This document shows, piece by piece, positions 13,945 to 32,878 of a stretch of 64,000 nucleotides of DNA (position 1 is the stretch's first letter; every line of letters begins with the position of its first letter). Under the pieces are notes generated by a model that was not told the DNA's origin, did not search any database, and worked only from the letters and a program-made list of their open reading frames with translations. The stretch spans positions 1-64,000 of the forward strand of contig CASFOZ010000005.1 in the NCBI GenBank assembly GCA_949296455.1, written 5' to 3'. Source of the stretch: an uncultured Eubacteriales bacterium (lineage in GTDB: Bacteria > Bacillota > Clostridia > Christensenellales > CALVMC01). A program made the translations under genes and the position numbers.

Positions 13945-16900
13945 ATGAGTTTAAAAAACAAACTGATATCATTATTTGTAATAACATTTATAATTATTAG
14001 TTTATTATGCATTTTGTTTTCAGGTAACAGTATTTCTTTAAACACATACCTTTCAAACGGCTCGGCGGCTAATACAGAGAGTACTGTCGATTATACAAAC
14101 AAAATGCCTACTAATAATAAGATTTCACAAATTCAGAGTTTGGCTAATCCTCTTAATTATGTCAGTATTTCCATACCCGACGATGAAAAACCTGAGGGAA
14201 GAGGAACTTATCGCGAACCGTATATAATTATGGACGCAGGCGATTTAAGATGGCTTACTAACAGGGTAGGTTACGGCGAGTCGGGTTCAAACACTAATAT
14301 ATATGTCGAACTCGGCGAAAATATAGATATGAGTAAACTTACCACAAAAGCCAGGGCACTTACAACTTCTTTGACTCACAGCGGTTATTATAAAAGCGGT
14401 TCAAGCTATGTTGCAAGAACGGCAAACTATATTGTTTGTACAGATTTTTTAGATGTAAAGGAAGGCGAACAGATAGATTCCCAGTTTTATGCTCAGTATC
14501 AGACTTCTACTTCCGATTATTTCTATACCATATTTCCTTTCGATTCCTCTGAAAAAATGATAGAGAGCGGAATTAAAGAATTTACTATAAAATACAACAC
14601 TAATGTCAGTACATGGTATACCGTTCCTGCGGGAGTTAAATATATTAAAATACAGGTGTGGAATACCGCTTCGGCAAATATAAACTCAAATAGATTGGTT
14701 TATACCAGCTATAAAAGCACAAATGCGGCAATCACTTACAACACATATTCCTGGATGCCGATAGGTAACGATATAAAGCCTTTCAGCGGTAATTTTGACG
14801 GGAAAAACCATACTATTTCGAATCTTACCATAAGCACCAACCTTTTGGCAGGCGCGGCAAGCGATTATACTATGCTGGGACTTTTCGGAAGAGTCAGCGG
14901 CGGCGAATATAAAAATGTCAATATCGTAAACAGCTGTATAGAAGGAACCTATACCGCAGGCGAAGTTCATTTAGGACTTTTTATGGGCGGCGGTACAGGC
15001 AGGGTTTCTCTCGATAACATTACGGTAGGGGCAAATGTTCCTTTGGAAGAAGAGGGATCGATTATTTCCGGTACATTCCCGCAAAACGCAAGGGTCGGCG
15101 GAGTTATAGGAAGTGCGGTAACTACAGCTCTTACCAATTTAAAGAATTATGCCTGGGTTCAAGGAAACTCTTCCTACATGGGCGGCATTGCAGGTTATGT
15201 AAGCGGACTTACAAATTTCGAATACAATAACTCTTCAAATTTATATAATTACGGAAGGGTAAAAAAGAACGACGGTTCTTCCGCCGATGCGGGAGGCATA
15301 TTCGGAACTGCCGAATATACTAATTTAGAAGATTCCGCAAATTACGGTACAGTTACCGGCGCAGTCGCAGGCGGTATTATAGGAAAACATAAAGGCGGAA
15401 CTATTTCTAGTTGCGTCAATAACGCCGTCTATGTCGAAGGAAAAGCAGGAGTAGGCGGTATCGTCGGGAATATTCTCAAAGGAGTAACGGCTTCGGTGAG
15501 CGACTGCACAAACAACGGCAGGGTTGTCACTACTCAGGAAAGTGCGGATAACGATAGCGATGTCTGCATAGGCGGTATTGTCGGAAGAATAGACGAGGAT
15601 ACCGTAGTAACAAGAAAAAAATATATTTCAGGCTGCGTAAATAACGGTCAGGTTTATGACCAATACAGAACGGCCGATACCGGCAACAACAACGCCAATG
15701 TTATAAGAATGGGCGGAATTGTAGGCGCTTCTTTCTACGCTTATATTATAGAGTGCGAAAATAACGGTGAAGTCCGTACGCCTTCTTACGAAGTAGGAGG
15801 GGTTTTAGGTTATGCTTCGGTAACCGATATCAGCAAATGCTACAATAACGGTAGGGTTCAAGGCGCAAGCAGAGTCGGCGGAATATTCGGAAATTTCGGA
15901 GGAAGAAATACGAATGTTACCGTTTCCGATTGCTTTAATCAGGGCGAAATAAGAGCAACTAAAACCAACGGCGGCTATGACGGCGCTGTCGCAGGCGGAA
16001 TAGCAGGCAGGTACGACGCCTCTTTAAAAACAAACAGTACTTTTATAAGATGTATAAACATAGGTACCGTCACAGGTAACAATGCAGGCGGTATCGCTGG
16101 CTGGGCAAAAGACCTTAACTCAAATAATTTAAACAATTATTTATTAATGGATAGCTGTTATAATGCAGGAGAGGTAAACGGCAAGAATTATGCAGGCGGT
16201 ATATTCGGCGTAATTACTTCTTCTACCGCTCACAAGACAGGCGTTATGAAAGTAATGAATGTTTATAACTCGGGACAGGTTAATTTAACGGGTAGCGGTC
16301 AGAAAGGTTCTTTTGCGGCTTTGATTTATAATAACGCTAATGCTAAGCCGGAATTAAATGTTTCTAACTTTTATGCCTATTACAGTTCGGGCACGCCTTA
16401 TTCTATTGTAAATCAAAACGGAAACGGAAGTTCATATCAGTTCAATCTTACCGGAATAAACGAAAGCACGAGCAATTTGGTAGGCTCGGTAAATCAATCG
16501 GATTTTGCAGGCTTCGATTTCGGGGCAGATGAAACCTGGGGAATCGTTCCCGGTTACAATAACGGTCTTCCTTACATAAGAGCTATTGATGAAATAGAAT
16601 TGACTTTCGATTATAATACTGTCGGAATAGAAAACGAAACTATTATTGTTCTTTACGGAACAGGCAGCTATACATTAAGCAATACAGTATATAATGAAGA
16701 CGCAAAATACGGCTATAAAGTAAGTAACTGGACTTTAAGTCAGGACGGAAGCGGTACAAGTTACGCCAACGGTGATTCCATTCCCGTTCAAAGACTCAGA
16801 GATATGGTAATATACGCAAACTATGTAGGTGCGCCTTATACTATAAAAATAGCCGGCATAACAAGTACGATAGACGGTGCGTTGACAAATGTCAGCGGCG

Positions 16901-19274: not shown

Positions 19275-22200
19275 ATGAAAGGAAATTATTTTGCACATAG
19301 AAAAATATTTAAATTATCAGTAATATTATTGGTGCTTTCAATTTTAATTGCACTTTTTACAGGTGTACTGTTTGCAAATAAAGATAATTATTTTATAACA
19401 AATAATTCTTATTCGGAAATAGATACAGAAAATACCGGAACGATTTACGGTGGAAGCATTACCGAGTATAACGGAACCGTAAGTTCTGCAATTTCCAATG
19501 CTTACACTGCAGCTAAAAATGCCGGTAATTGGCAGGGTTCAATAAATACATCATACAATCCTGCAAGCGAAAGCATAAACTCGGGAAGAGCAGGAACTTT
19601 TACTCAGCCTTACTATATCGATACGGCAGATCAGCTCGTAAAAGCCATTAACAACGCTTCTACAAAAAGCGGTTCCGATTATACTTACGCAAGTTATAAT
19701 AATGCAAATACATACTTTGTTATAAGAAAAGATATTGATCTTGCTTCAAAATTATATATTGTATCCAATCAGTCAAAAGTTAATTTCAATATATCAGGTT
19801 ATGACTATACTGCAATAAGCGGATATGCAAATTTTGCTACATCGACAGGTGTGCAAAGAGACGGAAAAACATATTCTAATACAACCGATCCGCTCAGAGC
19901 AGTTAACGAATACTTAAAAGATAATAATATATTTGATAATGTATCTTCGATAAATGCGACAGGTAATACATTTAAGACTATAAGTAATTTATATTTGGGG
20001 TTTGCTTCTAATAACGGTTTGTTCAACGAATTGGAAGGGAGCGTTTTAGCATTGAATTTTTATAATGTATATTATAATGGAACAGGAAGCAATCTCAACT
20101 TTTTAGGAGCGTTAGCAGCAAAGAAATACGGGTATTCGGTAGCAAGCGTTAATGTAAGGGGGCTTACTTTTAACATAAGCGGAGGTACTTCATCTGGAAA
20201 TAGCGGATATGGCGGAATTTTAGGGTTTGCAACAAATGGCGGACTTATAGATAATTCTGGTTTCGAAGGAGGATTAATTGCAACAAGTCTAAGAAATGTA
20301 GCAGGTATTGTAGGCTTAACAGATACTAATTTTGACGGTTCTTTTGTCGACAATACAGTTTATGGAAATATTTTATCCGGTAGAGGTAATACCGGAGGTT
20401 TAGTAGGATATCTACAAGGGAATTGCGAATTTAGCGGGACTAATATCAATAATGCAGATATCGAATCGAATTCGGGCTCTTTAGGCGGTATAATTGGAAT
20501 TTTTTCGGGAAGTTCTACAAGTTTACAAATAAGCGGAAACACTAAAAATTTAGGAAATATTCGAGGAACCAGTTCGGTAGGCGGAATAATAGGAACGGTA
20601 AGAGGATATGTAATTATGTCTGATGCCGTAAACGGTTATAACGGCGGTGCCTCAGACAATAATTCAGTAGGAAATTATTGCGATCCTAATGCAAGCATTC
20701 AAGCTTCCGGAAGCGGCGTTGGTGGACTTTTTGGATATGTGTATAGCCAAATTGAAATTAGTAATTGCCATAATTTTATGGAAATCATGTCAGGGCCCAA
20801 ATACGATGTAGGAGGATTAATGGGTATAATTCAAAGCGGTAGCGTTATAGATTCCTGTGTTAACCACGCAGATATATCAATGTTCGACATTTCAAATCTG
20901 GGCGGAATAGTAGGAGTACTCTACGGAGACTCTGAAATTAAAAATAGTGTAAATTACGGAAATATTTCAGCTAAATCAAACGCAGGCGGAATAGCCGGCA
21001 TATCTTATGCTACTATAGAAAATCAAGTATTTAGTGGGTGTAAAAACTATGGAACAATTGCATGTATATCAGGAAGAGCGGCAGGAATCTTTGCTGCGGT
21101 TCATTCTACTGTTAATAATTTAATTATAGAAAACTGTTCTAATTTCGGCTCGGTTTATAACGCTTCTACTATGAACAAGGTAGGAACTGCGAAACCGGGC
21201 GGCGGCACCTACTCTTACGAAGAGGCTTTTAAAGAAAGTTCTTACTCTGCAGCAGCTGCATATGTGGCAGGCATTTTAGGTTATTACGATAATTTTAATG
21301 TAACGGGAGGGGTTACTGTACAAAACTGTACTAACGGAACCTCAGGGACAAACAGTGTGATCAAATCGTCTTATCGCTATATAGGCGGTATTGTCGGAGG
21401 TAGCGGTCTTGCGGAGGACGGAACAGGTACTTTATACGATAATTTCTTTATAACCTTAAAAAATAACACAAATTATATGGATATCTCGGGTTGCGGGTAT
21501 GCAGGCGGACTCTACGGTCATATGAGAGGAAAAATTAAACTTACCATAGGGAACCCCGATATAGATACCAAAACTTACGGAAATTTCGGAACAATAACTT
21601 CTTTTCATTCAACAAGTGCCGATATAGGTTCTATTGCAGGTTGTATAAGGGGAACTCTCGACCTTGTAGGAGACAATGCTTATAAAAATGAAGAAACAAT
21701 CGAGACAAGCGAAGCGGCTACAACCGCAGGTGGTATAATAGGATTTATAGAAGGCACGGGCAGCAATACAATAGAGCTCAGCGCCAACTGGGCAAACGAA
21801 GCCGATATCGTAACCGGCAGAAGTTATGTCGGAGGAATAATCGGCGGAACCAGCAGAGCAAACTTTGTAATTTCCGGCGCAATGTACAATACAGGAGATA
21901 TCATTTGTAAAGCGGGAACAACTTATATAGGCGGTTTGTTTGGCAGCATGGCTTTGTCTCTTAGCATAAAAGCTTATATTTATAACGAAGGTAATGTTTA
22001 CAGTCAGCTCAAAACCACTGACAGTACGGTCAGCAGTGCTTCGGGAAGCATAGGCGGAATTGTCGGAAATGTAGGCGGTAAACTTGAATTTACACAAAGC
22101 GCCGCAGGCTCTTACAACAGCGGTATAGTTTACGCCAATTTCAGAAAGGTCGGCGGTATTGCAGGTAATGTGGGCGGTACGGTATCGATGACCGGAGTTA

Positions 22201-25200
22201 TCAGTGACGAAAATGAAAAAATAAAAGATAAACAATATCCCACAATAAACATTTACAAACCGGGAAGCGATGATGCAGAAGTAGTTACAGTTCTTTCAAC
22301 GGTTTTTGCAGAAGCCTATGCCGGAGGATTTATAGGATATATGACAGGGACGACCGCAAGCTTTACGAACTGTATCAATTACGCTTCCGTTTACTGTACG
22401 GCAAACGATGTCGCAGGCTTTATCGGACAGGGTAATTCTATTACAAGTTTAAGCATGGTTAACTGCAAAAATTACGGCGATATCGCAACCCAGGCTTCGT
22501 GGGCGGGCGGTTTTACCGGTGGCGCACCTCTTGGAGTATATGTAGAAAACTGTGCAAATTACGGTAATATTTCAACTCGTATGAGTCAAAGTGCGGCAGG
22601 TTTCTTCTCGGGAATAGGTTTTAACGATAAAACAGCTTATTCGGTAACTATTAAAAACTCCTTTAACGCAGGTAACATAGCGGGCGCTCTTACAACGGGC
22701 GGACTCATAGGTTATATAAGAAACGCTGAAACCGTCGAAATTACTGACTCATACAGTACGGGCAATGTTTCTGTTGAAAGTGTCGGGACGGGTATTCAGG
22801 CTAGATCGATGGGCGGACTTATTGGTCATGCCGAAAGATTCAATTCCTTAACGCTCAGCAATTGTTATGTGGATTGCGAGAAAGTAGGCGACATAAGCTC
22901 TTTACGAATCGGAGGATTAGTCGGGTATATTTATTACGCAAAGGCGGGTACTGTAAATATCAATAACTGTTATGTGGATATCGATACCATTGTTTCATCG
23001 AGAGATGTAAGCGGAAGTATCGGGGGTATTTCATCTAACGCAAATATTGACAGCAGATTTATTATGAAAGACTGTTATTTTGCGGGCGAATCAATTACCG
23101 GTCAGACCATTGCAGGCGGAATTTTAGGTTTTACCGATGGGCTGAGAGAGATAACCGTTCAAAGAGTTGCTTGTCTTTACTTTGGAATCGAAATTACGAC
23201 AGCAGGAAAGGCTGTTTCAGCTCTTGCTCAGAGTCTTTATGATGTTTCAGGCACCGTTCTTTTCGAAGATATTTATGTAACCAGCAAATTGATTGCGGCA
23301 AACGGGACAGGAGATGTTTCATTGTTTGTAGAATATTTAGAATTTGACAATGCTTACCGAGATTTAAGCGTAACAATTAAAAATTATTATTTCAGCGGAA
23401 ATCCCCAAGATTTCGACTATTTTCAAGGAAGTGAAGATTCAAGCGCAAAAAATAATTATTATAAAGGGAATGTATCGGCAAAACACGCAAATTATTTCGG
23501 CGCAATTGACAATAACAGTAACGGAACGAGTTACAAAAAAACACTCAGTATTCACGATACCTATATAACAAAACTTTCGCAGACCATATCTTTCGACGAA
23601 ATAGGCGGTTCTTCTAATTTTTCCTCAACTTCGGCAGCTGACTTCAACCCGTCTTCAACAAATAACTGCGATTATGAGTTCGGTACGGGAACCGATAATC
23701 TGTTTGTAAATTACAGCGATTTACAAAATATCGATAATTTTAACGGATGGGGAGTTACTCAAGATGTAAGAAGCGGCAGTGCAAACACTTCTTCCACGCC
23801 GTGGGGAATCGACGCTGCCGTAAACGACGGTAAGCCCTTCCTTATCGTTGCAACGATGAAAGAGATCAATATATACTACAATAACATCGGCGACGATCTC
23901 GATATATTCGATAACTCGATTATAAGAAATGTCGATGAAAGGAATAACGAGACCGTAGTTAGTATTATAAGTTATTTTTCCGATACTTTATCTTACAATG
24001 ATATTAAAAACGGCAAACAGGACGACAGCGGTTATAGTTATATCAATGAAATAAAAAGAGTCGGTTATAATGTCAGCGAATTATATAAAGCAAGACAAGA
24101 AAACGGTTCCTATTTAGCAAGCGATAAATATACGGAAATGCCCGTTTCATCGCCGGATAAAGTAATGACATTGAGAAACGGAGCCGATATATATATTTCA
24201 TATTCTGCGATAGAATATACTATAATTATTCCTAACGGCGGTGCGGTTAATGTTGCAGGCGCTGCAAATAATAAATTTACCATAGATAATTTAAGCGGAA
24301 TTAGTATAACGAATAATAATGAAGGACAGTCTTCCTCGTTTGTATATTTTGCGTTACAGAATATAGACGGCGAATACGATTCCGTTGGCGAGAGCAGTAT
24401 GGTTCTTATTGAGGGTTCTCAGGGGACGACAAGTGCGGTATATAAATTGAATTTCGAAGCTTTTATCAACCAACAGCTCATACACAACTATGCAAAATCT
24501 TCCGGTGGTAATATGTCTCTTACCTTTAAGGCTATGTTTATCGAAGTATACGAGGTAACTTTCAATTTATCGGCTGATACCTTCCCGTCCTATGTTACCG
24601 TAATTAATTCAAGCGGAGTATCGGTAGATTTCGGAAATACGATAAGTATCGAAGCGGGAAAACAGGAAACATACACTATTATATTAACAAAGCATTACGA
24701 GCTAGAAAAAGGACCCGTAGATGAATCAACCGGTTCTCCGATAGAAGGAAATACCGCAAATTATAATTACGATAAAACAAAAATGGTTCTTACTATAACC
24801 AATACCAATGCAAACGAAAAATATAATTTTACTATCTATGTTCAGGCAATAGAATATACGGTAGAATACAAATTATATAACACTTCGGGCGAGATATTAA
24901 TGCCGGAGCCGGGCGATATAACATTGGCGACGGAAAGTGCGGTTGTTACGGTAGGAAACGTAATCAGTGCGCAGAATATTTCCATAAATCCGGACAGCGT
25001 CTATAAGTTCGTTACATACAGATACCGTTATACCGAAAACGGCAATGTTAAAACCGAAGATATAGATACGCAGGGCTCGACTGTTTTAGGAACTATTGTT
25101 TGTACTGCCGATTATCTCGATAAATATGTAACCGACGGCAAAATTGTATTTGAGATAATATTCGAGTCAGACGCAACTTTAATTTTAACTATCGGCAATA

Positions 25201-26639
25201 TTGCAGATTGGGACAATGATTACGGTTCGGTAATAATAAATATTTATGATGAAAATTATGTAATGCAGTCAACCGAAACTGTATCAAGGCTTATCAGCGA
25301 GTTCGAACAATCCTTCGACGTCGGATTTATTATAGAGATAATTCCGTGGGTTAATAATCATTTCGAAATAACTGCCTTTACATTGAACGGCGAAAATACC
25401 GAGCTTATTAACGAGAAATTAACCTTGCAGTTAGACTCAAACAAAACCGTCAATATAGAAATGGATTATATCAAGTACGGTATAAGATATTCTATAGTCG
25501 ATGAAAATCATACCGAAATCGACGGCGTTATGGATAATGTTACAATAGAGCTTGAAACAGGACTCGATTATATCACGGCAAGAGGAGACAATGTCACGGG
25601 TCAGATTAGTGAGATTGCAGGTTACGGATTCAATTCTTGGGGAATTTACTATATGGGTGAATTTATCCCATTCAGCGCAAGCGACTATTCGACGGACGGT
25701 TCTCTTAACAGTGCCGAAATAACTCTTTATATATTAGATAATTATATCGACGACAACGGCGAACTGGTAATAGCTAGCAGATTATATACTTTGTTCGATA
25801 TCGATGTTGTGCTTGCCGATATCGGAGACGATTTAGGCGAATTCGAAATCAGAATTTATAACGATATTTTAGACGAATACGGCGACCCTGTGAATATCGA
25901 AGATATCGAAAGTATGCCTTATCTTACTTTGATTAAAGTTACTGCTCTTCCCGGAGAATATTACGATTTCAGACAGTTTATCGGAATATCCGAAGATGAA
26001 ATCAATCAGGAAGATTCTAATATCGCAGAATTCTATCTTACCGAATCGAGAACGGTTATGCTGTATTTCGAAGCAAGACCTATAGCAATTTCAGTTATTG
26101 AAGATTTAACCAGTGCTTCCGGTGAATTGGTTGTTTCAAATTCAAGCGGCAACACCGACAGCTGGAAAGCAGGTGACACTTTGTCATTTACTTTCAACGG
26201 CGCTTTCGGTCAGGAAATCAAAAGCTTCAGCTTCAACGGAATGGACGCAAAAGAATTGTCAACTACTTATGAAAATATAAACTATGCTAACGGAATCCTT
26301 ACGGTTACAATGACTGCCGAATTCCTTGAAACATTGGAAAATAATGATTTCAATATATCCGTTACTTCTCAAATCGGAACGATTTATCTTATAATGTTGT
26401 TAAGCATTATAATTATTCCGATAGTACTAACTATTTTGATTTTGATTTTCGTGATAATCAACATCAAGAGAAGAAAGAAAGCTATGGAAATTGTCGCTCA
26501 AAGAAAAGCTTCAAAATCAAGATTCGAAGCTTCCAATATGGTAAGCGAACTCAGACAAGGTACTTATAAACAGGCAGACAGAAGCGTTTCCAAAGAAGAA
26601 ATCGAGCGTCAGCTTAAAGCAAGAAAAGATAATAAGTAA
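19275..26639 (+). CDS. Giant surface protein B2 (2454 aa), a paralog of B1
   Basis: Starts 17 nt after A2 with RBS aggagg. Collinear with B1 (NWQGSINTSYNPASE, the Cys-ladder rungs, NFNGWGVTQDVRSGSANTSSTPWGIDAAVNDGKPFL). The C-terminal TM plus tail (IKRRKKAMEIVAQRKASKSRFEASNMVSELRQGTYKQADRSVSKEEIERQLKARKDNK) is nearly identical to that of B1. Confidence 0.9.
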   Translation: MKGNYFAHRKIFKLSVILLVLSILIALFTGVLFANKDNYFITNNSYSEIDTENTGTIYGGSITEYNGTVSSAISNAYTAAKNAGNWQGSINTSYNPASESINSGRAGTFTQPYYIDTADQLVKAINNASTKSGSDYTYASYNNANTYFVIRKDIDLASKLYIVSNQSKVNFNISGYDYTAISGYANFATSTGVQRDGKTYSNTTDPLRAVNEYLKDNNIFDNVSSINATGNTFKTISNLYLGFASNNGLFNELEGSVLALNFYNVYYNGTGSNLNFLGALAAKKYGYSVASVNVRGLTFNISGGTSSGNSGYGGILGFATNGGLIDNSGFEGGLIATSLRNVAGIVGLTDTNFDGSFVDNTVYGNILSGRGNTGGLVGYLQGNCEFSGTNINNADIESNSGSLGGIIGIFSGSSTSLQISGNTKNLGNIRGTSSVGGIIGTVRGYVIMSDAVNGYNGGASDNNSVGNYCDPNASIQASGSGVGGLFGYVYSQIEISNCHNFMEIMSGPKYDVGGLMGIIQSGSVIDSCVNHADISMFDISNLGGIVGVLYGDSEIKNSVNYGNISAKSNAGGIAGISYATIENQVFSGCKNYGTIACISGRAAGIFAAVHSTVNNLIIENCSNFGSVYNASTMNKVGTAKPGGGTYSYEEAFKESSYSAAAAYVAGILGYYDNFNVTGGVTVQNCTNGTSGTNSVIKSSYRYIGGIVGGSGLAEDGTGTLYDNFFITLKNNTNYMDISGCGYAGGLYGHMRGKIKLTIGNPDIDTKTYGNFGTITSFHSTSADIGSIAGCIRGTLDLVGDNAYKNEETIETSEAATTAGGIIGFIEGTGSNTIELSANWANEADIVTGRSYVGGIIGGTSRANFVISGAMYNTGDIICKAGTTYIGGLFGSMALSLSIKAYIYNEGNVYSQLKTTDSTVSSASGSIGGIVGNVGGKLEFTQSAAGSYNSGIVYANFRKVGGIAGNVGGTVSMTGVISDENEKIKDKQYPTINIYKPGSDDAEVVTVLSTVFAEAYAGGFIGYMTGTTASFTNCINYASVYCTANDVAGFIGQGNSITSLSMVNCKNYGDIATQASWAGGFTGGAPLGVYVENCANYGNISTRMSQSAAGFFSGIGFNDKTAYSVTIKNSFNAGNIAGALTTGGLIGYIRNAETVEITDSYSTGNVSVESVGTGIQARSMGGLIGHAERFNSLTLSNCYVDCEKVGDISSLRIGGLVGYIYYAKAGTVNINNCYVDIDTIVSSRDVSGSIGGISSNANIDSRFIMKDCYFAGESITGQTIAGGILGFTDGLREITVQRVACLYFGIEITTAGKAVSALAQSLYDVSGTVLFEDIYVTSKLIAANGTGDVSLFVEYLEFDNAYRDLSVTIKNYYFSGNPQDFDYFQGSEDSSAKNNYYKGNVSAKHANYFGAIDNNSNGTSYKKTLSIHDTYITKLSQTISFDEIGGSSNFSSTSAADFNPSSTNNCDYEFGTGTDNLFVNYSDLQNIDNFNGWGVTQDVRSGSANTSSTPWGIDAAVNDGKPFLIVATMKEINIYYNNIGDDLDIFDNSIIRNVDERNNETVVSIISYFSDTLSYNDIKNGKQDDSGYSYINEIKRVGYNVSELYKARQENGSYLASDKYTEMPVSSPDKVMTLRNGADIYISYSAIEYTIIIPNGGAVNVAGAANNKFTIDNLSGISITNNNEGQSSSFVYFALQNIDGEYDSVGESSMVLIEGSQGTTSAVYKLNFEAFINQQLIHNYAKSSGGNMSLTFKAMFIEVYEVTFNLSADTFPSYVTVINSSGVSVDFGNTISIEAGKQETYTIILTKHYELEKGPVDESTGSPIEGNTANYNYDKTKMVLTITNTNANEKYNFTIYVQAIEYTVEYKLYNTSGEILMPEPGDITLATESAVVTVGNVISAQNISINPDSVYKFVTYRYRYTENGNVKTEDIDTQGSTVLGTIVCTADYLDKYVTDGKIVFEIIFESDATLILTIGNIADWDNDYGSVIINIYDENYVMQSTETVSRLISEFEQSFDVGFIIEIIPWVNNHFEITAFTLNGENTELINEKLTLQLDSNKTVNIEMDYIKYGIRYSIVDENHTEIDGVMDNVTIELETGLDYITARGDNVTGQISEIAGYGFNSWGIYYMGEFIPFSASDYSTDGSLNSAEITLYILDNYIDDNGELVIASRLYTLFDIDVVLADIGDDLGEFEIRIYNDILDEYGDPVNIEDIESMPYLTLIKVTALPGEYYDFRQFIGISEDEINQEDSNIAEFYLTESRTVMLYFEARPIAISVIEDLTSASGELVVSNSSGNTDSWKAGDTLSFTFNGAFGQEIKSFSFNGMDAKELSTTYENINYANGILTVTMTAEFLETLENNDFNISVTSQIGTIYLIMLLSIIIIPIVLTILILIFVIINIKRRKKAMEIVAQRKASKSRFEASNMVSELRQGTYKQADRSVSKEEIERQLKARKDNK

Positions 26640-26660
26640 TTATAGCGATTCAATAGAAAA

Positions 26661-26687
26661 ACTCCGAAAAATTCGGAGTTTTTTTAT
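26661..26687 (+). terminator. Rho-independent terminator after B2
   Basis: actccgaa-aaa-ttcggagt perfect hairpin followed by ttttttt. Confidence 0.85.
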
Positions 26688-26737
26688 TGCAAATTTTTAT
26701 TAATATAATTAAATTAATAATTTTTTTGCTTATATCT

Positions 26738-26766
26738 ATTGAAAAGATATATATTTTGTGCTAAAA
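26738..26766 (+). promoter_or_regulatory. Putative promoter (TTGAAA-17-TGcTAAAAT, extended -10) for the SPFH/zinc-ribbon gene
   Basis: ttgaaa at 26738-43, a 17-nt spacer ending in tgc, taaaat at 26761-66. RBS aaggag precedes the ATG at 26834. Confidence 0.5.
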
Positions 26767-26833
26767 TAATATCATTAATATTAGGAATTTTATTTTTATT
26801 CCTGTTTTATTAAGTTAGTTTAAGGAGCACGCT

Positions 26834-29287
26834 ATGGGGTTTTCGAAAAACCAGTTTTGTAAACATGTTGAATGGGAAGACAAGTCGTCAGACAGTATCG
26901 GTTTAAGATTTATCTCTAACGGCGATAAGGAAATCTCTAAAAATTCAAAAGTTATCGTTGAGGACAATCAACTCGCTTTATTTTATTTGGAAGGTCAAAT
27001 CACCGATGTTTTTTGGCCGGGTACTTATAAACTTTCCGATTCCGATAAGGTCGCTGTGACTTCGGAAATGTTAGGGTGGAGGCATCCTTTCGATACCCCC
27101 TATGAAGGCGATGTGTATTTTTTCAATACCGATAGTTTTTCAAAACAAAAATGGGTAACTCATTCTGCCGTAACCGTAAACGATAATGAAAGCGGTGGAG
27201 TTAAAATAAAATGTTTCGGAACTTTTTCTTATAATGTTATAAACCCCGGCAATCTTATTGCCAAAGCTTTCGGAGCAAAACCTCTTCTTAAAACCTCCGA
27301 TTTGGAAGCTTCTTTAAACGATATAATTACCAAAAATATTCCCGCTATTTTTTCGGAAAGTAAAATTTCCGTAAAAGCGGCAATTTCCGATTCAAGCGCT
27401 CTTTCCGAGACTGCTCTAAATGTCTTACAGAACGATTTTTCGGAATTAGGTTTAGAAGTAAGAGCTTTTGCTTTTGATAATATTACAAACGAGGATGAAA
27501 AGCCTACTTTAGCGGCTTACGAGGAAACGCCCGTCGAAATCAAAACCACAAAAACGGAAAATTTCCAAAATACTAACCAGCAGATACAATACCCGAATCA
27601 ACAAATGCCGCAATCAAATCAGCAGATACATTATCCGAATCAGCAGCCGCATTCTAACCAACAAATACAATATCCTAACCAACAGGCTCAGGCTTCAAGA
27701 TCGGAATCGGTTCAGTCACAACAGCAAAGACCGTCTAATCCGTCATCTTACAATAATTATCAAAATTCTTATCTTACACGCTCCCCGATGGGCGGAGCCA
27801 GCGGTGGCGGACTTGCTATAAACGACGCTTTTCTTAGAGCTAAAGGTGTTCAGCAGACAAATAAATTAGAAGAAAGAAAGGAATGTCCGAAGTGTCATAC
27901 TATGGTAAAAATTTCTTCAAGGTTTTGTCCTAACTGCGGCAGCGAAGTTAATGCGAAAAAAACTTGCAGTAATTGCGGAGCAGAAATAAACAGCAATGCC
28001 AAGTTTTGTCCTGAATGCGGAAAAACCGTTACCGATATTTTAGAATCAAAGAAAAATTGTCCCAACTGCGGTGCGGAACTCAAACCGGGAGCAAAATTCT
28101 GTCCTGAGTGCGGTACTTCTGTTTTGAATAATACTGTTTCTGCAAATATGCCTGCAAATCAGAATTCTGCCATAAACCAGAATGATTCCTTTGACGCAAA
28201 TCAGAGTGTACATGAAATTAGAGAGACGGTTGAAAATCCAAACGCTTCACAATTACGGAAAGATGAAAGCGAGGTTAATAATACTGTTTCAAGTGAAAGA
28301 CCTTTCGAAAACAATAATATTACTTCTTCCATGGACTCTTCTTCCGAAGAAAAAAAATCCGATATCTTAGAAAGCGAAAATGTTCAAGGTCAAAGTATCA
28401 AGAATTTGGAAAGCGAAAATGAAAACGATTTATCCGCAAACAGTGCTTCCGAAGAGTCGTTACAGACTGAAAGCAATAGTTTGAATGACGGTGAAAATCA
28501 CGCTCAATTCGTTGAGAACGGTTCTGTTTCGGAAGTTTTAAGTTCCGATAATAAAAAAGAAACGGCAGATTTAATCGACGAAACGAATAATGAAAATAGT
28601 GAAAATTTTAATCAGCAAAATATAGATAAGGAAGATAATAATGTTGTCGCCGAATCCGATTCGGAAGAAAAGGTAAATATAAATTTGTCTTCCGAAAATG
28701 AAGAAGTATCGCAAAACCCTATAAATAATGTTTCGGAAAATACTTCTGAATCTTCCGATTCCGATTTAAAAAATGCGGACACAAACGAAATTGAAGAAAA
28801 AAGTTCAGACAATTCTTTAAATCAAGACAGTATTAATGAAAGTAACGAAGAACGGTTTTTAAATCAGAACGAACAGATTGCTGAAAATCAAGATATTGAA
28901 GATAACTCTATTTCGGACAGCAGATACGAAAATCAATCCGTTGACGAGACTAATAATTTAAATGCTAACCTTGAAAACTTATCTCAGCAAAAAAACAGTT
29001 TTCAGAACGATATCGAAATGATGAAAAAAATAATCGTGGAAAGTGATAATGTTTCAAGAGAAAACACGGTTAAAAGTTCGGCTTTTGAAAACGATATCAA
29101 AAATATTTATCAAGGCGAGCAACCTAAAATGCCGTCGTCCGAAAATTCCGTTCCGTTTACAAACGGCGGTATGAATCAAAATCCGAATAACGATATCCAG
29201 TCAAGATTACAGCAGAATATCAATTCTTCGCAAAATAATTTCGCAGGTCAAAATGCGGAAAATTCCGAAGATGATAAAAAAAAATGA
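26834..29287 (+). CDS. SPFH-type (Band_7_1 / YdjI-like) domain protein (817 aa). It is fused to a Gln-rich tandem repeat, three double-zinc-ribbon motifs and a long acidic Ser/Asn/Glu-rich disordered tail.
   Basis: The N-terminus MGFSKNQFCKHVEWEDKSSDSIGLRFISNGDKEI...VEDNQLALFYLEGQITDVFWPGTYKLS follows the characteristic opening of Band_7_1 family proteins (MG..F....IEW.D.S.D.L.WRFP....I..G..L.V.E.Q.A.F...GQ..DVF.PG.Y.L). Three repeats of NQQIQYPNQQ. follow, then CPKCHTMVKISSRFCPNCGSEV, CSNCGAEINSNAKFCPECGKTV and CPNCGAELKPGAKFCPECGTSV. The remaining ~380 aa are low-complexity and acidic. Confidence 0.8.
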   Translation: MGFSKNQFCKHVEWEDKSSDSIGLRFISNGDKEISKNSKVIVEDNQLALFYLEGQITDVFWPGTYKLSDSDKVAVTSEMLGWRHPFDTPYEGDVYFFNTDSFSKQKWVTHSAVTVNDNESGGVKIKCFGTFSYNVINPGNLIAKAFGAKPLLKTSDLEASLNDIITKNIPAIFSESKISVKAAISDSSALSETALNVLQNDFSELGLEVRAFAFDNITNEDEKPTLAAYEETPVEIKTTKTENFQNTNQQIQYPNQQMPQSNQQIHYPNQQPHSNQQIQYPNQQAQASRSESVQSQQQRPSNPSSYNNYQNSYLTRSPMGGASGGGLAINDAFLRAKGVQQTNKLEERKECPKCHTMVKISSRFCPNCGSEVNAKKTCSNCGAEINSNAKFCPECGKTVTDILESKKNCPNCGAELKPGAKFCPECGTSVLNNTVSANMPANQNSAINQNDSFDANQSVHEIRETVENPNASQLRKDESEVNNTVSSERPFENNNITSSMDSSSEEKKSDILESENVQGQSIKNLESENENDLSANSASEESLQTESNSLNDGENHAQFVENGSVSEVLSSDNKKETADLIDETNNENSENFNQQNIDKEDNNVVAESDSEEKVNINLSSENEEVSQNPINNVSENTSESSDSDLKNADTNEIEEKSSDNSLNQDSINESNEERFLNQNEQIAENQDIEDNSISDSRYENQSVDETNNLNANLENLSQQKNSFQNDIEMMKKIIVESDNVSRENTVKSSAFENDIKNIYQGEQPKMPSSENSVPFTNGGMNQNPNNDIQSRLQQNINSSQNNFAGQNAENSEDDKKK
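27581..27712 (+). repeat. Three tandem ~40-nt repeats encoding (S/T)NQQI(Q/H)YPNQQ.. inside the SPFH/zinc-ribbon gene
   Basis: TNQQIQYPNQQMPQ / SNQQIHYPNQQPH / SNQQIQYPNQQAQAS read directly from the translation. Confidence 0.7.
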
Positions 29288-32200
29288 TTGAAGACGGAGA
29301 TGCCGTTGATTCTGATGAGTTTTTAAAAGTAAATAAAGACGATAACTATTATAATGACTCCTTTTCCGATAACGGTTCGGATAGGGAGTCTTTTTATGCA
29401 AATCAGCAAAGTACAAGTAATTTTGAAGATGAAAGTTTTTTGGGGCAATCCGATTTAGGAAATCGGCAATTTTCCGATAACGAATTCAATTCTCATTTTG
29501 AAAATCAAGCGGATAATTCAAACGGTAATGTTGATTTACATAATAATTTTAACGGTAAAGATGATTTAAATAATAATTTATATGATAACGATGTTTTAAA
29601 CACTTATAACGATAATGATTTATACGATAAAAATTTAAATTCTTATAACGATAACGATTCAATAAAAAACGATGTAAATTTATATAACCAAAATGATTTA
29701 TTCGACGATTCTGAAAATAGCGTAGATACTTTGCCGAATAATACAAACGAACAATACTATTTTGAGAATGATTTGAACGATAACGAAATCGTTGGGGAAT
29801 CGGAAAACCCGTTAAATCTTCATAACGGAAATTTTCAAAATTCTGAAAGCGACTTCGAAAATCCCGTAAAAGAATTGAAAAATTCTGAAAACGATGTTTA
29901 TAATTTCAAAAATCCAACAGAAAATCAATACGATTTTAAAAATGCCAACGGAAACGAAATGGCTGTTGATAACAAAATCGACAACGGTGAGAATATTGCA
30001 GATACAAACCCACTCTTTGGAAAAAGAGCCGAAAATTCACAAAACAACAGTGAAGAAGGAAATTTCAATTCGGATGTAGAAAGCCGATTTGTCCAAAATA
30101 CTGCAAATACAATGGACGAAAATACAACGGCTGAGAATTTTCTGAACGATACACGGACTGCTTTTCAAAACAAATTAGATAATGCCCTTTTTAAGGATTT
30201 CGATGATTTTGAGAAAAGTCAAAATACCGATGATTTTGGCGACGATAATTTCAGCGGTGCAGAGATTGCTTTGAAAAATCGAAAAGAAACAGAAGAAGAA
30301 TTTTCGAATGACACGGTAATAGAAAGGGAAACAACCGAAAAAGAATTTGAATCGAACAAAACCGTTTTCAATCCATATTTTAATGATGAAGATATAGAAG
30401 AAAAAGAAAATATCGAAAAAGCTTCTTTATCGGAAAATCATTTAAAAGAAGAAAATGAAAAAGAAATAGATTCAGAAATTAGTGAGTCGGAAAAGAAAGC
30501 TAAAGTAGAGATAGGCGAGTCGGAAAAGAAAATAAGAGTAGGAAATGATGAGTCGCAAGCAGATACAGAAGAAGAAAGCGATGAATCGATAGATGATAGG
30601 TCGTCTGATAAAGAAACAAACGACATAAAACCGACAGACGAGAAAAATCAAAATTCAGAAAACACCGAAGATTTTAACGACGGCAAAGAGGAAATAAAAA
30701 ACCGTTCTATAAATATAAATTTAACCAATCAATTTTTAAATAATTTAAGCATGGCTCAATCAAATGAGAAAATCAAACAAGAGCAGCCTATGCCGGTAGA
30801 TACCGATATAGAAAAGAAAGGGAATAAGAATATTTTAGGGAAGTATTCGGATTTTTTAGACAGCTTAAAAACTCAGGCGGGAGTAAATGATAAGAAAGAA
30901 GATAACTTAGATATTGAATCCGACGATAGCGAAAATGACGCAGATAATACGGAAAATATACAGGCTGAAAAAGAAGACCTTTCAGAAAGCGATGAATTGA
31001 ATTTTCCCGAGTCAAAAGTTTACGATAATTCAAATGCCGAAAACGAAAATATATTCAAAAATTCCGTTGACGAAAAAGAAGAGTCTGAACCTAAACAGGA
31101 GCAGCAGACTTTCGACCCCGGCGCATACCTTAAAAATGTAATAAATCAAAATCAAAATTCCGAAAATGACGCACCTAAAGAAAAAGTTAAAAGAACGATA
31201 TTTGACGAAGAAGATGATGAAGATATAAAGTCGTATAATAAAGAAGATATCAGAAAGTTATTGTTCGACGACGAAGAAGAGGACGAACAAGAAGAGATAC
31301 AAAAAGAAAATTATGTTCAAGCTAGCGAGCAAGACAAAAAGGAAGGGCAAGATAAAAGGGAAGAGCAGGTCAAACAGGAAAGTCAGCCTTTCGACGCAAG
31401 TTCTTATATTAAGAATTTAATATCTTCAAACCAAAAAGAAGTCAAGGAAGAAGAGTCGGAAAAGCAGTCGCCGAAAGCATTTGGAGAAGCTGCCGAAAAC
31501 GAAAACATATTCAAAAATTCCGTTGACGAAAAAGAAGAGTCTGAGCCTAAACAGGAGCAGCAGACTTTCGACCCCGGCGCATACCTTAAAAACATAATAA
31601 ACCAAAATCAGAATAAAGAAAATAAAGATTTAAACAATGAAATAAAAAAAGATAATTTGTTTGCCGATTTATCGAAAAACAATATTTCCGATAATTCAGA
31701 GTCCGATGCCGAAGACGCAAGTGATGGCGAAATGATTTCGAAAATAATGTTCCGAAAAATGGGTATAGAAGATATCGAAGACGATGAAGAGGATGAGAGC
31801 GAAAATGTTTCGGATAGAAAAATCGATTCTTCGGTTGCAGAAAGTCAGAAATTTTTATCGGATAACGAAGCCGTCAAAGATTCAGACAGAGAAACAAGGC
31901 CTAAGGTAAAAACAATTTTCGACGACGATGATGAAGAAGAGCCCGATAAAACTCCCCGTGGGGATTCTTTTGCCGAACAGTTGCTGCGAAAAATGCAGGC
32001 TATGAAAGAGGAAAGGGAGAAAGGCAAAAGAAATTTCGATACAAACGAAGCAAGATATAATCCTTTGTCCGAATACGGAAGCGGACGCAATTATTCAAGC
32101 AGGACGAACGAAAAAGCAAATAACGACGACAGAACTAATTTTGAAAGCAAACAGGAAATAAAAGAAACCGTTCAAGAAGAGCCGGTAAAGCAAAGTATTT

Positions 32201-32553
32201 CTCAAGAGATAAAATCGGATTCGTTTAAAGAAAGCGAAACACGCAAAGACGACATTTCTCTAAATACCGATATTTCAAGCAAAACCGGTGCGGATAATTT
32301 AAATACAAAATCCGAAAACAATAACGGATATGCAAAAGCTCAGCCGACCGGATATTCCCATTCTTTTGTCGATAATATTCTTACATACGGATACGGATGG
32401 GACGATGTGTATTCGTTCAATCAGGAAATTTCGGACGAAGAAGGACTTCTCAACGCATTCGGAGTGTCGAACAAAAGTTATGAAAATGCAGGTTTAAATC
32501 AGCCGTTGAGTTACGATAACGACGACCCGTTAAAAAACATAAAAAAGCCTTAA
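29284..32553 (+). CDS. Hyper-acidic low-complexity protein (1089 aa; Asp/Glu/Asn/Ser/Lys-rich, predicted disordered), with no TM segment or signal peptide
   Basis: A 3.3-kb ORF whose ATG overlaps the stop of the upstream gene (aaaaaaaaATGA). The composition is dominated by D/E/N/S/K and contains an internal duplicated block ENENIFKNSVDEKEESEPKQEQQTFDPGAYLKN(V/I)INQNQN. The coding potential is supported only by ORF length and codon continuity, and low-complexity ORFs can be overcalled. Confidence 0.65.
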   Translation: MIEDGDAVDSDEFLKVNKDDNYYNDSFSDNGSDRESFYANQQSTSNFEDESFLGQSDLGNRQFSDNEFNSHFENQADNSNGNVDLHNNFNGKDDLNNNLYDNDVLNTYNDNDLYDKNLNSYNDNDSIKNDVNLYNQNDLFDDSENSVDTLPNNTNEQYYFENDLNDNEIVGESENPLNLHNGNFQNSESDFENPVKELKNSENDVYNFKNPTENQYDFKNANGNEMAVDNKIDNGENIADTNPLFGKRAENSQNNSEEGNFNSDVESRFVQNTANTMDENTTAENFLNDTRTAFQNKLDNALFKDFDDFEKSQNTDDFGDDNFSGAEIALKNRKETEEEFSNDTVIERETTEKEFESNKTVFNPYFNDEDIEEKENIEKASLSENHLKEENEKEIDSEISESEKKAKVEIGESEKKIRVGNDESQADTEEESDESIDDRSSDKETNDIKPTDEKNQNSENTEDFNDGKEEIKNRSININLTNQFLNNLSMAQSNEKIKQEQPMPVDTDIEKKGNKNILGKYSDFLDSLKTQAGVNDKKEDNLDIESDDSENDADNTENIQAEKEDLSESDELNFPESKVYDNSNAENENIFKNSVDEKEESEPKQEQQTFDPGAYLKNVINQNQNSENDAPKEKVKRTIFDEEDDEDIKSYNKEDIRKLLFDDEEEDEQEEIQKENYVQASEQDKKEGQDKREEQVKQESQPFDASSYIKNLISSNQKEVKEEESEKQSPKAFGEAAENENIFKNSVDEKEESEPKQEQQTFDPGAYLKNIINQNQNKENKDLNNEIKKDNLFADLSKNNISDNSESDAEDASDGEMISKIMFRKMGIEDIEDDEEDESENVSDRKIDSSVAESQKFLSDNEAVKDSDRETRPKVKTIFDDDDEEEPDKTPRGDSFAEQLLRKMQAMKEEREKGKRNFDTNEARYNPLSEYGSGRNYSSRTNEKANNDDRTNFESKQEIKETVQEEPVKQSISQEIKSDSFKESETRKDDISLNTDISSKTGADNLNTKSENNNGYAKAQPTGYSHSFVDNILTYGYGWDDVYSFNQEISDEEGLLNAFGVSNKSYENAGLNQPLSYDNDDPLKNIKKP
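31035..31165 (+). repeat. Intragenic direct repeat, copy 1 (~130 bp)
   Basis: gccgaaaacgaaaatatattcaaaaattccgttgacgaaaaagaagagtctgaacctaaacaggagcagcagactttcgaccccggcgcataccttaaaaatgtaataaatcaaaatc... Confidence 0.8.
31492..31622 (+). repeat. Intragenic direct repeat, copy 2 (~130 bp, near-identical to copy 1)
   Basis: gccgaaaacgaaaacatattcaaaaattccgttgacgaaaaagaagagtctgagcctaaacaggagcagcagactttcgaccccggcgcataccttaaaaacataataaaccaaaatc... Only a handful of substitutions relative to copy 1. Confidence 0.8.
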
Positions 32554-32635
32554 AATTAATTTTAAGATAAAATTTTCAGGTCAATAAAACCCAAAAAACA
32601 GTAAAAAATTTTTAAAAAATTTCTTTGTAAAATGT

Positions 32636-32664
32636 TTGACAAGGAAATTTTTTTATTATAGAAT
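32636..32664 (+). promoter_or_regulatory. Sigma-A promoter (TTGACA-17-TAGAAT) of the S10 ribosomal protein operon
   Basis: ttgaca at 32636-41, a 17-nt spacer, tagaat at 32659-64, about 215 nt upstream of rpsJ. Confidence 0.7.
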
Positions 32665-32878
32665 ATAAAAGCTGCACAAAAAAGGATGATGCGGAAGGTT
32701 ACCTACGGGATAGTTTTCGCGGACTAGTTTAAATAATTAAACGACCGGAAAGGGGAAACCCTTTTTTAAAAAGCGGGCAGCGACACACACGAACGAGTGA
32801 ACGGCAAGTCCTTTATATATAAGACAAGCTCTCACAAGTCAACCGCTATCCGGGTATAAACAGGAGGATTGAACACCT
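32665..32878 (+). promoter_or_regulatory. S10 operon leader with an attenuator-like hairpin plus T-run (candidate L4 autoregulatory leader)
   Basis: The ~215-nt untranslated leader contains GGGG-AAA-CCC followed by tttttt at 32752-32767, and further GC-rich stems (gcgggcagcgac, cgaccggaaagg). The long structured leader position is analogous to the E. coli/Bacillus S10 leader. Confidence 0.45.

Follow-up and report, generated by a model that had tools for sequence, protein, structure and literature searches.

The SPFH gene and the acidic reading frame

We analysed a 64,000-nt stretch of contig CASFOZ010000005.1 (assembly GCA_949296455.1, positions 1 to 64,000 of the forward strand; hereafter the window) from an uncultured Eubacteriales bacterium of the Clostridia, and describe here an open reading frame (ORF) for a strongly acidic protein of 1089 residues that overlaps the end of a gene for an SPFH-domain protein. 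An earlier note on this DNA, made from the sequence alone, had placed the ORF at 29284-32553 and had seen neither a transmembrane (TM) segment nor a signal peptide in its product, and on all of these points we agree with it. The note had not remarked on the overlap with the SPFH gene at a conserved run of nine A, nor on how variable the locus is within the species. The two genes lie between a group of giant genes and rpsJ, and together with the sites around them they form the following unit:

26651-26689, + strand: terminator-like hairpin with an 18-pair stem and a T-run, after the last giant gene
26739-26767, + strand: promoter-like site TTGAAA-17-TG-TAAAAT 5' of the SPFH gene (consensus match only)
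26834-29287, + strand: SPFH/zinc-ribbon gene, 817 aa
29276-29284, + strand: A9 run, the SPFH codons AAA AAA AAA, the last A of which also begins the acidic ATG
29284-29287, + strand: ATGA overlap (4 nt) of the SPFH stop codon with the acidic start codon
29284-32553, + strand: gene for the acidic, predicted disordered protein, 1089 aa, ATG start

The hairpin at 26651-26689 separates the giant genes from the SPFH/acidic unit.

The product of the upstream gene carries an SPFH domain at residues 31-221 (Pfam Band_7_1, PF13421; E=3.9e-41, 141.4 bits against a cut-off of 24), which is followed by a Q/P-rich linker and by zinc ribbons at residues ~340-430 (Zn_Ribbon_1, E=1.3e-22). Within the linker is a 39-nt tandem repeat encoding QQIQYPNQQ (27573-27684), and the protein ends in a low-complexity tail of ~380 residues rich in N, S and E (28154-29287). 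All of the 1287 homologues, which are 345-396 aa long and ~30% identical, are without the tail and without the QQIQYPNQQ repeat. The tail and the linker repeat are also more variable between strains, at 82-89% nucleotide identity. The composition of the tail runs seamlessly into the acidic ORF, and no membrane anchor is found in the SPFH protein or in the acidic one.

Five residues dominate the acidic protein, namely E (13.9%), N (13.9%), D (11.8%), S (9.2%) and K (9.0%), which together account for 57.8% of it. The earlier description of the sequence as almost exclusively D/E/N/S/K is therefore right in kind and mildly overstated in degree, as hydrophobic or aromatic residues make up 20% of the protein and are clustered in conserved islands. 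There is no Cys and a single Trp. With a net charge of -155, a pI of 4.2 and a grand average of hydropathy of -1.46, the protein is strongly polyanionic, as had been proposed, and its fraction of charged residues (0.37) and net charge per residue (-0.14) place it among disordered proteins by the high-charge/low-hydropathy criterion. No window of 19 residues is sufficiently hydrophobic for a TM segment or a signal peptide, and no anchor motif was found.

AlphaFold2 returned a mean predicted local distance difference test (pLDDT) score of 33.5 and a predicted template modelling score of 0.22, with 1052 of the 1089 residues below a pLDDT of 50, from a shallow alignment of 10 sequences whose shallowness alone lowers confidence. 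The model contains short helices only (residues 279-312, 482-492, 515-531, 612-624, 705-715, 764-779, 815-825 and 896-916, among others). The last 70 residues, the sole Trp- and aromatic-rich part of the protein, were considered as a folded domain and rejected on a pLDDT of 27-39. The protein is predicted to be disordered along its full length, in keeping with the expectation, for which this very check had been proposed, that it has no globular segment.

Comparison of the acidic protein with Pfam, NCBIfam, PADLOC, PHROGs and PDB sequence profiles gave no match, nor did the C-terminal 117 residues alone match anything in NCBIfam or Pfam; a Pfam 'Churchill' match at E 0.07 was discarded as noise. 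A HMMER profile search of 1.84 billion representative proteins yielded 3 matches, all from the protein's own family, while no family member was found in the IMG/VR viral contigs and a scan of JGI metagenomes with a degenerate DNA pattern for FDPGAYLKN gave 0 matches. A phage or defence origin of the ORF was rejected on the empty PADLOC, PHROGs and IMG/VR searches. As far as these comparisons reach, the gene is an orphan of one uncultured Clostridia species. Its codon usage is like that of weakly expressed genes (G+C at third codon positions, 0.32 versus 0.41; TTT/TTC, 0.63 versus 0.28). Inside the ORF, a promoter-like TTGAAA-18-TATAAT (11/12) at 29875-29904 was attributed to chance in AT-rich DNA, given that promoter-like sites are in total as numerous as the shuffles predict. 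A gene of this kind would ordinarily be dismissed as a low-complexity hypothetical; the evidence presented below indicates instead that it is selected and that it belongs to a defined two-gene unit.

Selection and variation among strains of one species

Nine homologues of the acidic protein, all metagenomic, were found at 59-95% identity, and 7 loci were recovered with the same synteny (giant gene, SPFH gene, acidic ORF, rpsJ), one of them from a GTDB metagenome-assembled genome labelled 'uncultured Clostridia bacterium'. As flanking DNA is ~97% identical between strains and ribosomal proteins are 99-100% identical, we treated the alleles as strains of one species. The alleles are distinguished by more than 20 indels of 3 to 468 nt, all of them multiples of three except for a 17-nt deletion in the allele L006. 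The ratio of nonsynonymous to synonymous substitution rates (dN/dS, or omega) is 0.37-0.39 across the ORF (Nei-Gojobori), and the longest ORF listed in the other frames is 81 aa, versus 1089 open codons in this one. Because the indels are in frame and dN/dS is below 1, the acidic ORF is a real coding gene under purifying selection. The earlier note had allowed for a fast-evolving ORF of doubtful function, to be judged by whether relatives keep the frame. The ORF does evolve fast, yet the frame is kept in the 7 conspecific loci with the single 17-nt exception, and the proposal therefore survives the check on frame conservation.

In L006 (10001-13676), the allele closest to the window, the 17-nt deletion removes AAAAGTTAAAAGAACGA (window ~31180-31196) and splits the acidic gene into ORFs of 634 and 597 aa that overlap by 23 nt. 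The split may be natural, as a truncated or two-part allele, or it may stem from an error of assembly.

Within the 23 kb compared between strains, no stretch diverges more than the acidic ORF. Nucleotide identity is 65% at 29784-30284 and 74-77% at 30284-30784, versus 94-99% in ribosomal genes, and dS is 0.44-0.56, versus 0.05-0.18 in the neighbouring ribosomal-protein genes. Blocks of the protein come in two sequence types that are recombined differently among strains: residues 236-380 are 29-38% identical to every allele but P0004, while identity among alleles ranges from 52 to 94% at residues 825-875 and from 52 to 100% at residues 925-1022. L006 matches the window at 100% in its flanks and nevertheless differs from it at 13% of nucleotides in 31784-32284. 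The mosaic blocks reach a dS of ~1-1.5, inflated in the most diverged of them by alignment uncertainty, beside flanks with a dS of 0.05-0.18. In sub-windows along the ORF, omega rises to 0.6-0.9 in some and is below 1 in every one.

Two-type mosaic blocks of such high dS, the 13% divergence of L006 in a single block, the length polymorphism of the repeats described below and a neighbourhood that encodes variable giant surface proteins are what might be expected of a variable protein that is exported or displayed on the surface, for example an antigen or a phage target, secreted by a non-classical route and under diversifying or balancing selection. We consider such a protein quite improbable here, since the sequence has no signal peptide, TM segment, anchor motif or Cys and is coupled to a cytosolic-type SPFH protein, and dN/dS stays below 1 in every sub-window and thus gives no hint of positive selection. 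Rapid neutral drift of the disordered spacers, together with recombination, accounts for the pattern.

Amid this divergence, the C-terminal part of the protein contains a series of short conserved segments:

30682-32475, + strand: region with 12 conserved islands enriched in hydrophobic residues, invariant in 7 full-length alleles
First six islands: residues 467-490, 533-547, 561-584, 606-628, 649-660 and 707-720
Last six islands: residues 758-773, 808-832, 894-907, 916-936, 1026-1039 and 1049-1064

Hydrophobic residues are enriched in the islands (29% versus 19%), several of which coincide with predicted helices, the sole helices of the AlphaFold model. Their dS of 0.32-0.36 is like that of the spacers between them, while their dN is 0.03-0.04, resulting in an omega of ~0.1, a value that is partly circular because the islands were picked for invariance. 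The spacers have an omega of 0.33-0.38 and the N-terminal 460 residues one of 0.46-0.49. The allele P0007, which is widespread (on 5 contigs), is missing ~180 aa of the N-terminal region.

Much of the length variation between alleles involves repeats within the ORF:

29513-29688, + strand: in-frame tandem repeats of 30 nt (10 aa) and 39 nt (13 aa; YNDNDLY...), with allele-dependent copy number
30474-30555, + strand: in-frame 33-nt tandem repeat (SESEKK...), with a 33-nt indel between alleles
31035-31167, + strand: repeat copy A-first (AENENIFKNSVDEKEESEPKQEQQTFDPGAYLKNVINQNQNSEN), 133 nt
31384-31443, + strand: B motif, a degenerate third copy (QPFDASSYIKNLISSNQKE; QPFDASSYIKNLISSNQKEV), residues 701-719
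31491-31623, + strand: repeat copy A-last, 133 nt

At the first of these sites most alleles have a 30-nt gap and P0007 has an additional 13-aa unit. The two A copies correspond to what had been described as a recent ~130-bp duplication. They are 93% identical over 133 nt, with 9 differences and a spacing of 456 nt, and a repeat of this length and identity cannot be chance. At 6 of the 9 differing sites the change is synonymous and falls in the third codon position; the others cluster at the 3' end (V to I, S to K). The internal repeat went undetected in a composition-corrected self-BLASTP and rests on the DNA-level comparison. The degenerate third copy is likewise present, at residues 701-719. 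Motif A (FDPGAYLKN) and motif B (FDASSY[LI]KN) alternate, and the conservation of PGAYLKN that had been singled out for checking is borne out by an A-B-A layout in all alleles, simple in most and extended to A-B-A-B-A in two of them, L008 and L006.

The duplication is, however, one state of a module that varies in copy number. In alleles other than that of the window, the first and last A copies are clearly diverged. The A-last copy of the window matches L006 copy A2 in its 5' part and L006 copy A3 in its 3' part, and the window allele and L006 are separated by a single in-frame indel of 417 nt with A copies at its bounds. Because of this chimeric match and these indel boundaries, the near-identity of the A copies is seen to reflect gene conversion and unequal crossing-over in a variable-copy module of 456 nt (~152 aa).

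A protein that changes in this way could be a stand-alone, fast-evolving, low-complexity product of runaway repeat expansion, with little sequence-specific function and only an incidental adjacency to the SPFH gene. The gene is an orphan of one species with no predicted fold, its nucleotide identity is 65-82% beside flanks of ~97%, omega is 0.6-0.9 in some sub-windows, several in-frame repeats vary in number, codon usage suggests weak expression, and one allele carries a 180-aa deletion while another is frameshifted. We regard this explanation as rather unlikely. The frame has been kept through more than 20 indels, and the 12 islands combine an omega of ~0.1 with a dS of 0.32-0.36; in addition, 7/7 alleles share one and the same junction with the SPFH gene, and the ORF lies in a position that is conserved for SPFH partners, as set out next.

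The SPFH partner position and the A9 junction

Operons of SPFH genes with partner genes are the rule (PMC2636767), and the Band_7_1 protein YdjI/SamI of Bacillus subtilis is soluble and needs the operon-encoded membrane partners YdjG/H (PMC8581546; bioRxiv 10.64898/2026.02.06.704340). SPFH proteins of this soluble class rely on such partners for their localisation as well as their function. In other Clostridia, 4 of 5 sampled loci with an SPFH-zinc-ribbon gene encode a conserved protein of ~360 aa that begins 0-20 nt downstream of it:

L009, 7193-8311: ~360-aa partner gene
L013, 5146-6258: ~360-aa partner gene
L014, 5062-6120: ~360-aa partner gene
L015, 5971-7035: ~360-aa partner gene

This partner family (alignment A2) has two N-terminal CxxC...CxxC zinc ribbons, in which eight Cys are invariant, a central domain and a C-terminal TM segment, and corresponds to no Pfam family. 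Its members probably serve SPFH proteins of this class as a YdjG-like membrane anchor. In L009, a distant relative whose L3 and L4 are 67% identical to those of the window, the SPFH/partner pair likewise lies just upstream of rpsJ.

The acidic ORF stands where the partner would be expected, on the same strand as the SPFH gene, within a gap of no more than 20 nt and indeed with a 4-nt overlap. Its product has none of the hallmarks of the canonical partner: it has no Cys with which to form zinc ribbons and no hydrophobic segment that could serve as a C-terminal TM. Alignment of the acidic family (alignment A1) with A2 by hhalign gave a probability of 0.1%, as did alignment of A1 with the L009 partner. 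Descent of the acidic ORF from the canonical partner or from the SPFH tail was rejected, as hhalign and BLASTP showed no similarity. A tblastn search of the window with the canonical partner matched only the zinc ribbons of the SPFH protein itself. Judged by gene order, the acidic ORF fills the slot that is held in relatives by a zinc-ribbon, membrane-anchored partner.

The pair resembles YdjI/SamI with YdjG/YdjH (pspA-ydjGHI = samGHI, Bacillus subtilis) in that its upstream gene has the same Band_7_1-type SPFH domain, and it resembles SPFH/partner operons such as stomatin-NfeD and HflK/C in that the acidic ORF is a tightly linked gene downstream. It departs from YdjG/YdjH-type pairs in having a partner without zinc ribbon, Cys, TM segment or similarity to the canonical partner, and from the samGHI operon in having no adjacent pspA and in having an SPFH protein that itself bears zinc ribbons and a disordered tail of ~380 aa. 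We regard the acidic ORF and the SPFH gene as a putative SPFH/partner operon with an unprecedented type of partner.

The two genes meet at AAAAAAAAATGA, which reads GAT GAT AAA AAA AAA TGA in the SPFH frame, and the acidic ATG consists of the last A of the run and the TG of the SPFH stop codon. This junction (A9 plus ATGA) is identical in 7/7 alleles, a small sample drawn from a single species, amid an otherwise variable region. The A9 run is the sole homopolymer of at least 9 A or T in the 64-kb window. The other 4 KKK tripeptides in ORFs of the window are each interrupted by AAG, and runs of at least 9 A inside ORFs were observed once, compared to 4.5±1.6 expected, with one or fewer found in 3% of synonymous shuffles. 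Relative to the SPFH frame, the acidic one lies at -1, and a TAA at 29275-77 closes it just before the run; therefore, the two frames can be joined nowhere but in the A-run. A slippery heptamer, A_AAA_AAA, lies at 29278-29284 in phase with the SPFH frame. One added A in the mRNA, or a -1 ribosomal slip on the heptamer, would yield an SPFH-acidic fusion of ~1906 aa with the predicted junction peptide ...NSEDDKKKMIEDG... (...DDKKK-MIEDG...).

By eye, no GGAGG-like Shine-Dalgarno element is visible upstream of A9. A stimulator of ribosomal frameshifting was considered and rejected, as the fold downstream of the run is no better than that of shuffles and a hairpin upstream of it is marginal and varies between alleles. 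Given that there is no convincing stimulator, a fusion, if made, is more likely to arise by polymerase slippage.

The dnaX gene of Thermus thermophilus is a poly-A slippage cassette that gives two protein forms. Runs of A9 or T9 slip efficiently in vivo (PMC5009743). At the A9 run of IS1447 in Clostridium thermocellum, slippage is ~16% in each direction, and runs of 7-9 suffice for it (PMC6211511), while an A11 run before a stop codon in Citrobacter results in two required forms of TssM (PMC4256274). As in Citrobacter rodentium tssM1 (A11) and IS1447 (A9), a run of at least 9 A is found here at or just before the upstream stop codon, and, as in poly-A slippage cassettes in general, the downstream frame is reached by one extra A and the run is conserved and atypical for its genome. 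The present case, in which slippage is predicted, differs from such cassettes in two respects. The acidic ORF has its own ATG overlapping the stop codon, so that fusion is unnecessary for its expression, and the downstream part is disordered orphan sequence rather than a conserved domain.

A junction inside a homopolymer, with the composition of the SPFH tail continuing into the acidic ORF, could also arise if a single gene with a true A10 run had been misassembled, or if the acidic ORF were non-coding. Both forms of artefact are extremely improbable, since 7 assemblies from different samples and studies all have A9, and the coding nature of the ORF is evident from its in-frame indels and a dN/dS below 1.

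Neighbouring genes and a possible role as an SPFH tail

Upstream of the two-gene unit, four giant genes (G1 851-6157, G2 6173-13594, G3 13945-19257 and G4 19275-26639; span 851-26639) form two tandem pairs. Their products, of 1768-2473 aa, have an N-terminal signal/TM segment, a C-terminal TM segment and a basic cytoplasmic tail of 58-64 aa, and their ectodomains contain patches of 81-88% nucleotide identity between strains. The only Rfam match in the window, a partial 5S rRNA (3' part, 1-93; RF00001, 70.6 bits), places an rRNA operon just upstream of the giant genes.

The basic tails, named in the earlier note as one of two sets of basic partners, make the giants conceivable clients of a polyanion, and the acidic protein could be a cytoplasmic adaptor that binds the tails of all four surface proteins, perhaps linking them to the SPFH scaffold. 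The type-I-like topology of G1-G4, with tails of net +6 to +10, would suit such an adaptor, as would the conservation of TM segment and tail among paralogue pairs (73-100%, versus 36-65% for ectodomains), the adjacency of giants to the SPFH/acidic pair in all strains with a recovered upstream flank, and the fact that SPFH and acidic proteins both lack a membrane anchor of their own. However, the giants form a separate transcription unit that ends at the terminator at 26651-26689, the charge of the tails is modest, no co-occurrence is seen beyond one species, and L009 has no giants beside its SPFH gene. An adaptor of this kind is improbable on balance, and would be compatible with a role as an SPFH partner.

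Downstream, the acidic ORF is followed by the S10 operon and its promoter-like site:

32636-32664, + strand: promoter-like TTGACA-17-TAGAAT of the S10 operon (rpsJ start 32879; near-consensus match)

The site lies in a gap of 325 nt before rpsJ (32554-32878) and is followed by a leader of ~200 nt. No Rfam family reached threshold in 32554-32878, so any regulatory RNA of the S10-leader type there would be undescribed. No terminator-like site was found between the acidic ORF and the promoter-like site at 32636-32664. Several ribosomal proteins encoded in this region are unusually long. L5 (38881-39915) has a Lys/Ala/Thr/Ser-rich N-terminal extension of ~165 aa, with a weak match to the histone-H1-like Pfam family HC2, and the length of the extension varies between strains (L5 of 295, 328 and 344 aa in conspecifics); L24 (38339-38881) has a basic C-terminal extension of ~70 aa; and L17 (48953-49459) is 168 aa long, with a Pfam match over 153 residues for a model of 97 positions.

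These Lys/Ala-rich extensions had been put forward in the earlier note as obvious basic partners, for which the acidic protein would act as a counter-ion or chaperone. In support, the ORF lies directly 5' of the S10-spc operon with no terminator-like site between, and L5 (344 aa, net +33) and L24 (180 aa, net +20) have long basic extensions. The proposal is nonetheless disfavoured, and we rate it very improbable. Adjacency to rpsJ is shared by L009, whose SPFH partner is a membrane protein, and was therefore inherited with the SPFH gene rather than being specific to the acidic ORF. Moreover, the S10 operon has its own near-consensus promoter-like site, the acidic gene and the ribosomal-protein genes differ in codon usage, a point against stoichiometric expression, and blocks of 30-55% amino acid identity between strains would be unexpected in a partner of ribosomal proteins that are 99-100% identical. 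Further downstream are a fused gene for the bifunctional IspD-IspF of the methylerythritol phosphate pathway (49554-50696, - strand) and then genes for a HAD hydrolase, carAB and rpoB; the remaining window holds ordinary housekeeping genes.

Taken together, these observations lead us to favour, tentatively and with somewhat less than even confidence, a reading in which the acidic protein, a disordered polyanion of the cytoplasm, serves the SPFH scaffold as a partner or tail, is made free and probably also fused, and is composed of a spacer and motifs. On this reading it would be a detachable tail of that scaffold. We infer translational coupling, slippage with fusion, association with SPFH and a division into bristle and docking motifs, which would fit together as follows. 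The SPFH and acidic ORFs would be expressed as a unit that has a promoter-like site to itself and is preceded by a terminator. Ribosomes that end the SPFH gene would reinitiate at ATGA and produce the free 1089-aa protein, and RNA polymerase would slip on A9, a known slippery template for bacterial RNA polymerase, so that a fraction of transcripts would carry A10 and encode the SPFH-acidic fusion of ~1906 aa. In either form, the SPFH oligomer would bear a long, highly charged and expanded chain, in which the first ~460 residues would serve as a variable spacer or bristle. The ~620 residues at the C-terminus would present about a dozen conserved short amphipathic or hydrophobic motifs, which include 3-5 copies of FDxxxY(L/I)KNxI and 3 copies of (I/L)FD[DE]n, as multivalent docking sites for the SPFH oligomer and/or basic clients. 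The division into spacer and motifs is supported by P0007, which does without ~180 N-terminal residues, and by an omega of 0.46-0.49 in the N-terminal part versus ~0.1 in the islands.

A number of points weigh against this reading. None of the 7 alleles has the fused A10 state, and no stimulatory RNA structure is found downstream of the run, the 80 nt that follow it folding at -9.1 kcal/mol (z -0.08); the hairpin on its upstream side scores marginally (z -2.0) and differs between alleles, with uncompensated changes in its stem. The A9 run may be conserved merely for encoding KKK, or as an A-rich leader that aids reinitiation. The split allele L006 suggests that the intact chain may be dispensable, the evolutionary rates carry the limits given above for the dS of the most diverged blocks and the omega of the islands, and a canonical membrane partner might still be encoded elsewhere in the genome. 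Finally, when an artificial chain of SPFH(1-439) and acidic(466-1089) was modelled with AlphaFold2, the SPFH part reached a pLDDT of 82-97 and the zinc ribbons were confident, but there was no sign of docking and the acidic part remained below 50 except in isolated helices (no predicted aligned error was available). The gain in helix confidence in this chain most likely reflects a helix bias of single-sequence prediction.

Large cytoplasmic scaffold regions that are acidic, repeat-containing, multivalent and poorly conserved are known from HubP/FimV of Vibrio and Pseudomonas (PMC12918733), and the acidic protein is comparable to these in size, charge and beads-on-a-string layout and would resemble them most closely in how it works. 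It likewise has a long acidic, repeat-containing cytoplasmic region. The N-terminal LysM-like periplasmic domain and TM segment of HubP/FimV are absent from it (Pfam; TM scan), as is the C-terminal FimV/TPR domain (Pfam/NCBIfam, full protein and C-terminal 117 aa), and it differs further in having no sequence similarity to HubP/FimV and in belonging to a Gram-positive lineage. PopZ of Caulobacter is an acidic, poorly conserved scaffold of the same kind. Staphylococcal Ser-Asp repeat proteins are low-complexity proteins with variable-number repeats that are secreted and wall-anchored. The acidic protein is like them in its strain-varying, in-frame copy number and in its combination of fast-evolving low-complexity spacers with conserved functional ends, and unlike them in having no export or anchoring signal.

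A more far-reaching version of the SPFH-tail reading, fairly improbable in its entirety, is that this species has swapped the zinc-ribbon anchor for a polyanion of ~1100 aa, made free by reinitiation at ATGA and fused to SPFH by programmed polymerase slippage on A9, which would tether SPFH to the conserved basic tails of the giants, both by charge and by its repeated helical motifs, in a species-specific cortical scaffold with a strain-variable spacer.

The locus offers a view of how a disordered protein evolves within one bacterial species. Islands that resemble binding motifs are under strong purifying selection, while the spacers between them diverge to ~30% identity, change in length through repeats and are reshuffled by recombination. 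SPFH scaffolds are present in most cells and remain mechanistically obscure, and in every case studied their behaviour depends on a partner from the operon. If the acidic protein is indeed the partner of the SPFH protein described here, this species would be a natural experiment on how SPFH scaffolds recruit clients or find the membrane, with a polyanion in place of the anchor that is possibly fused to the scaffold at a ratio tunable through the A9 run.

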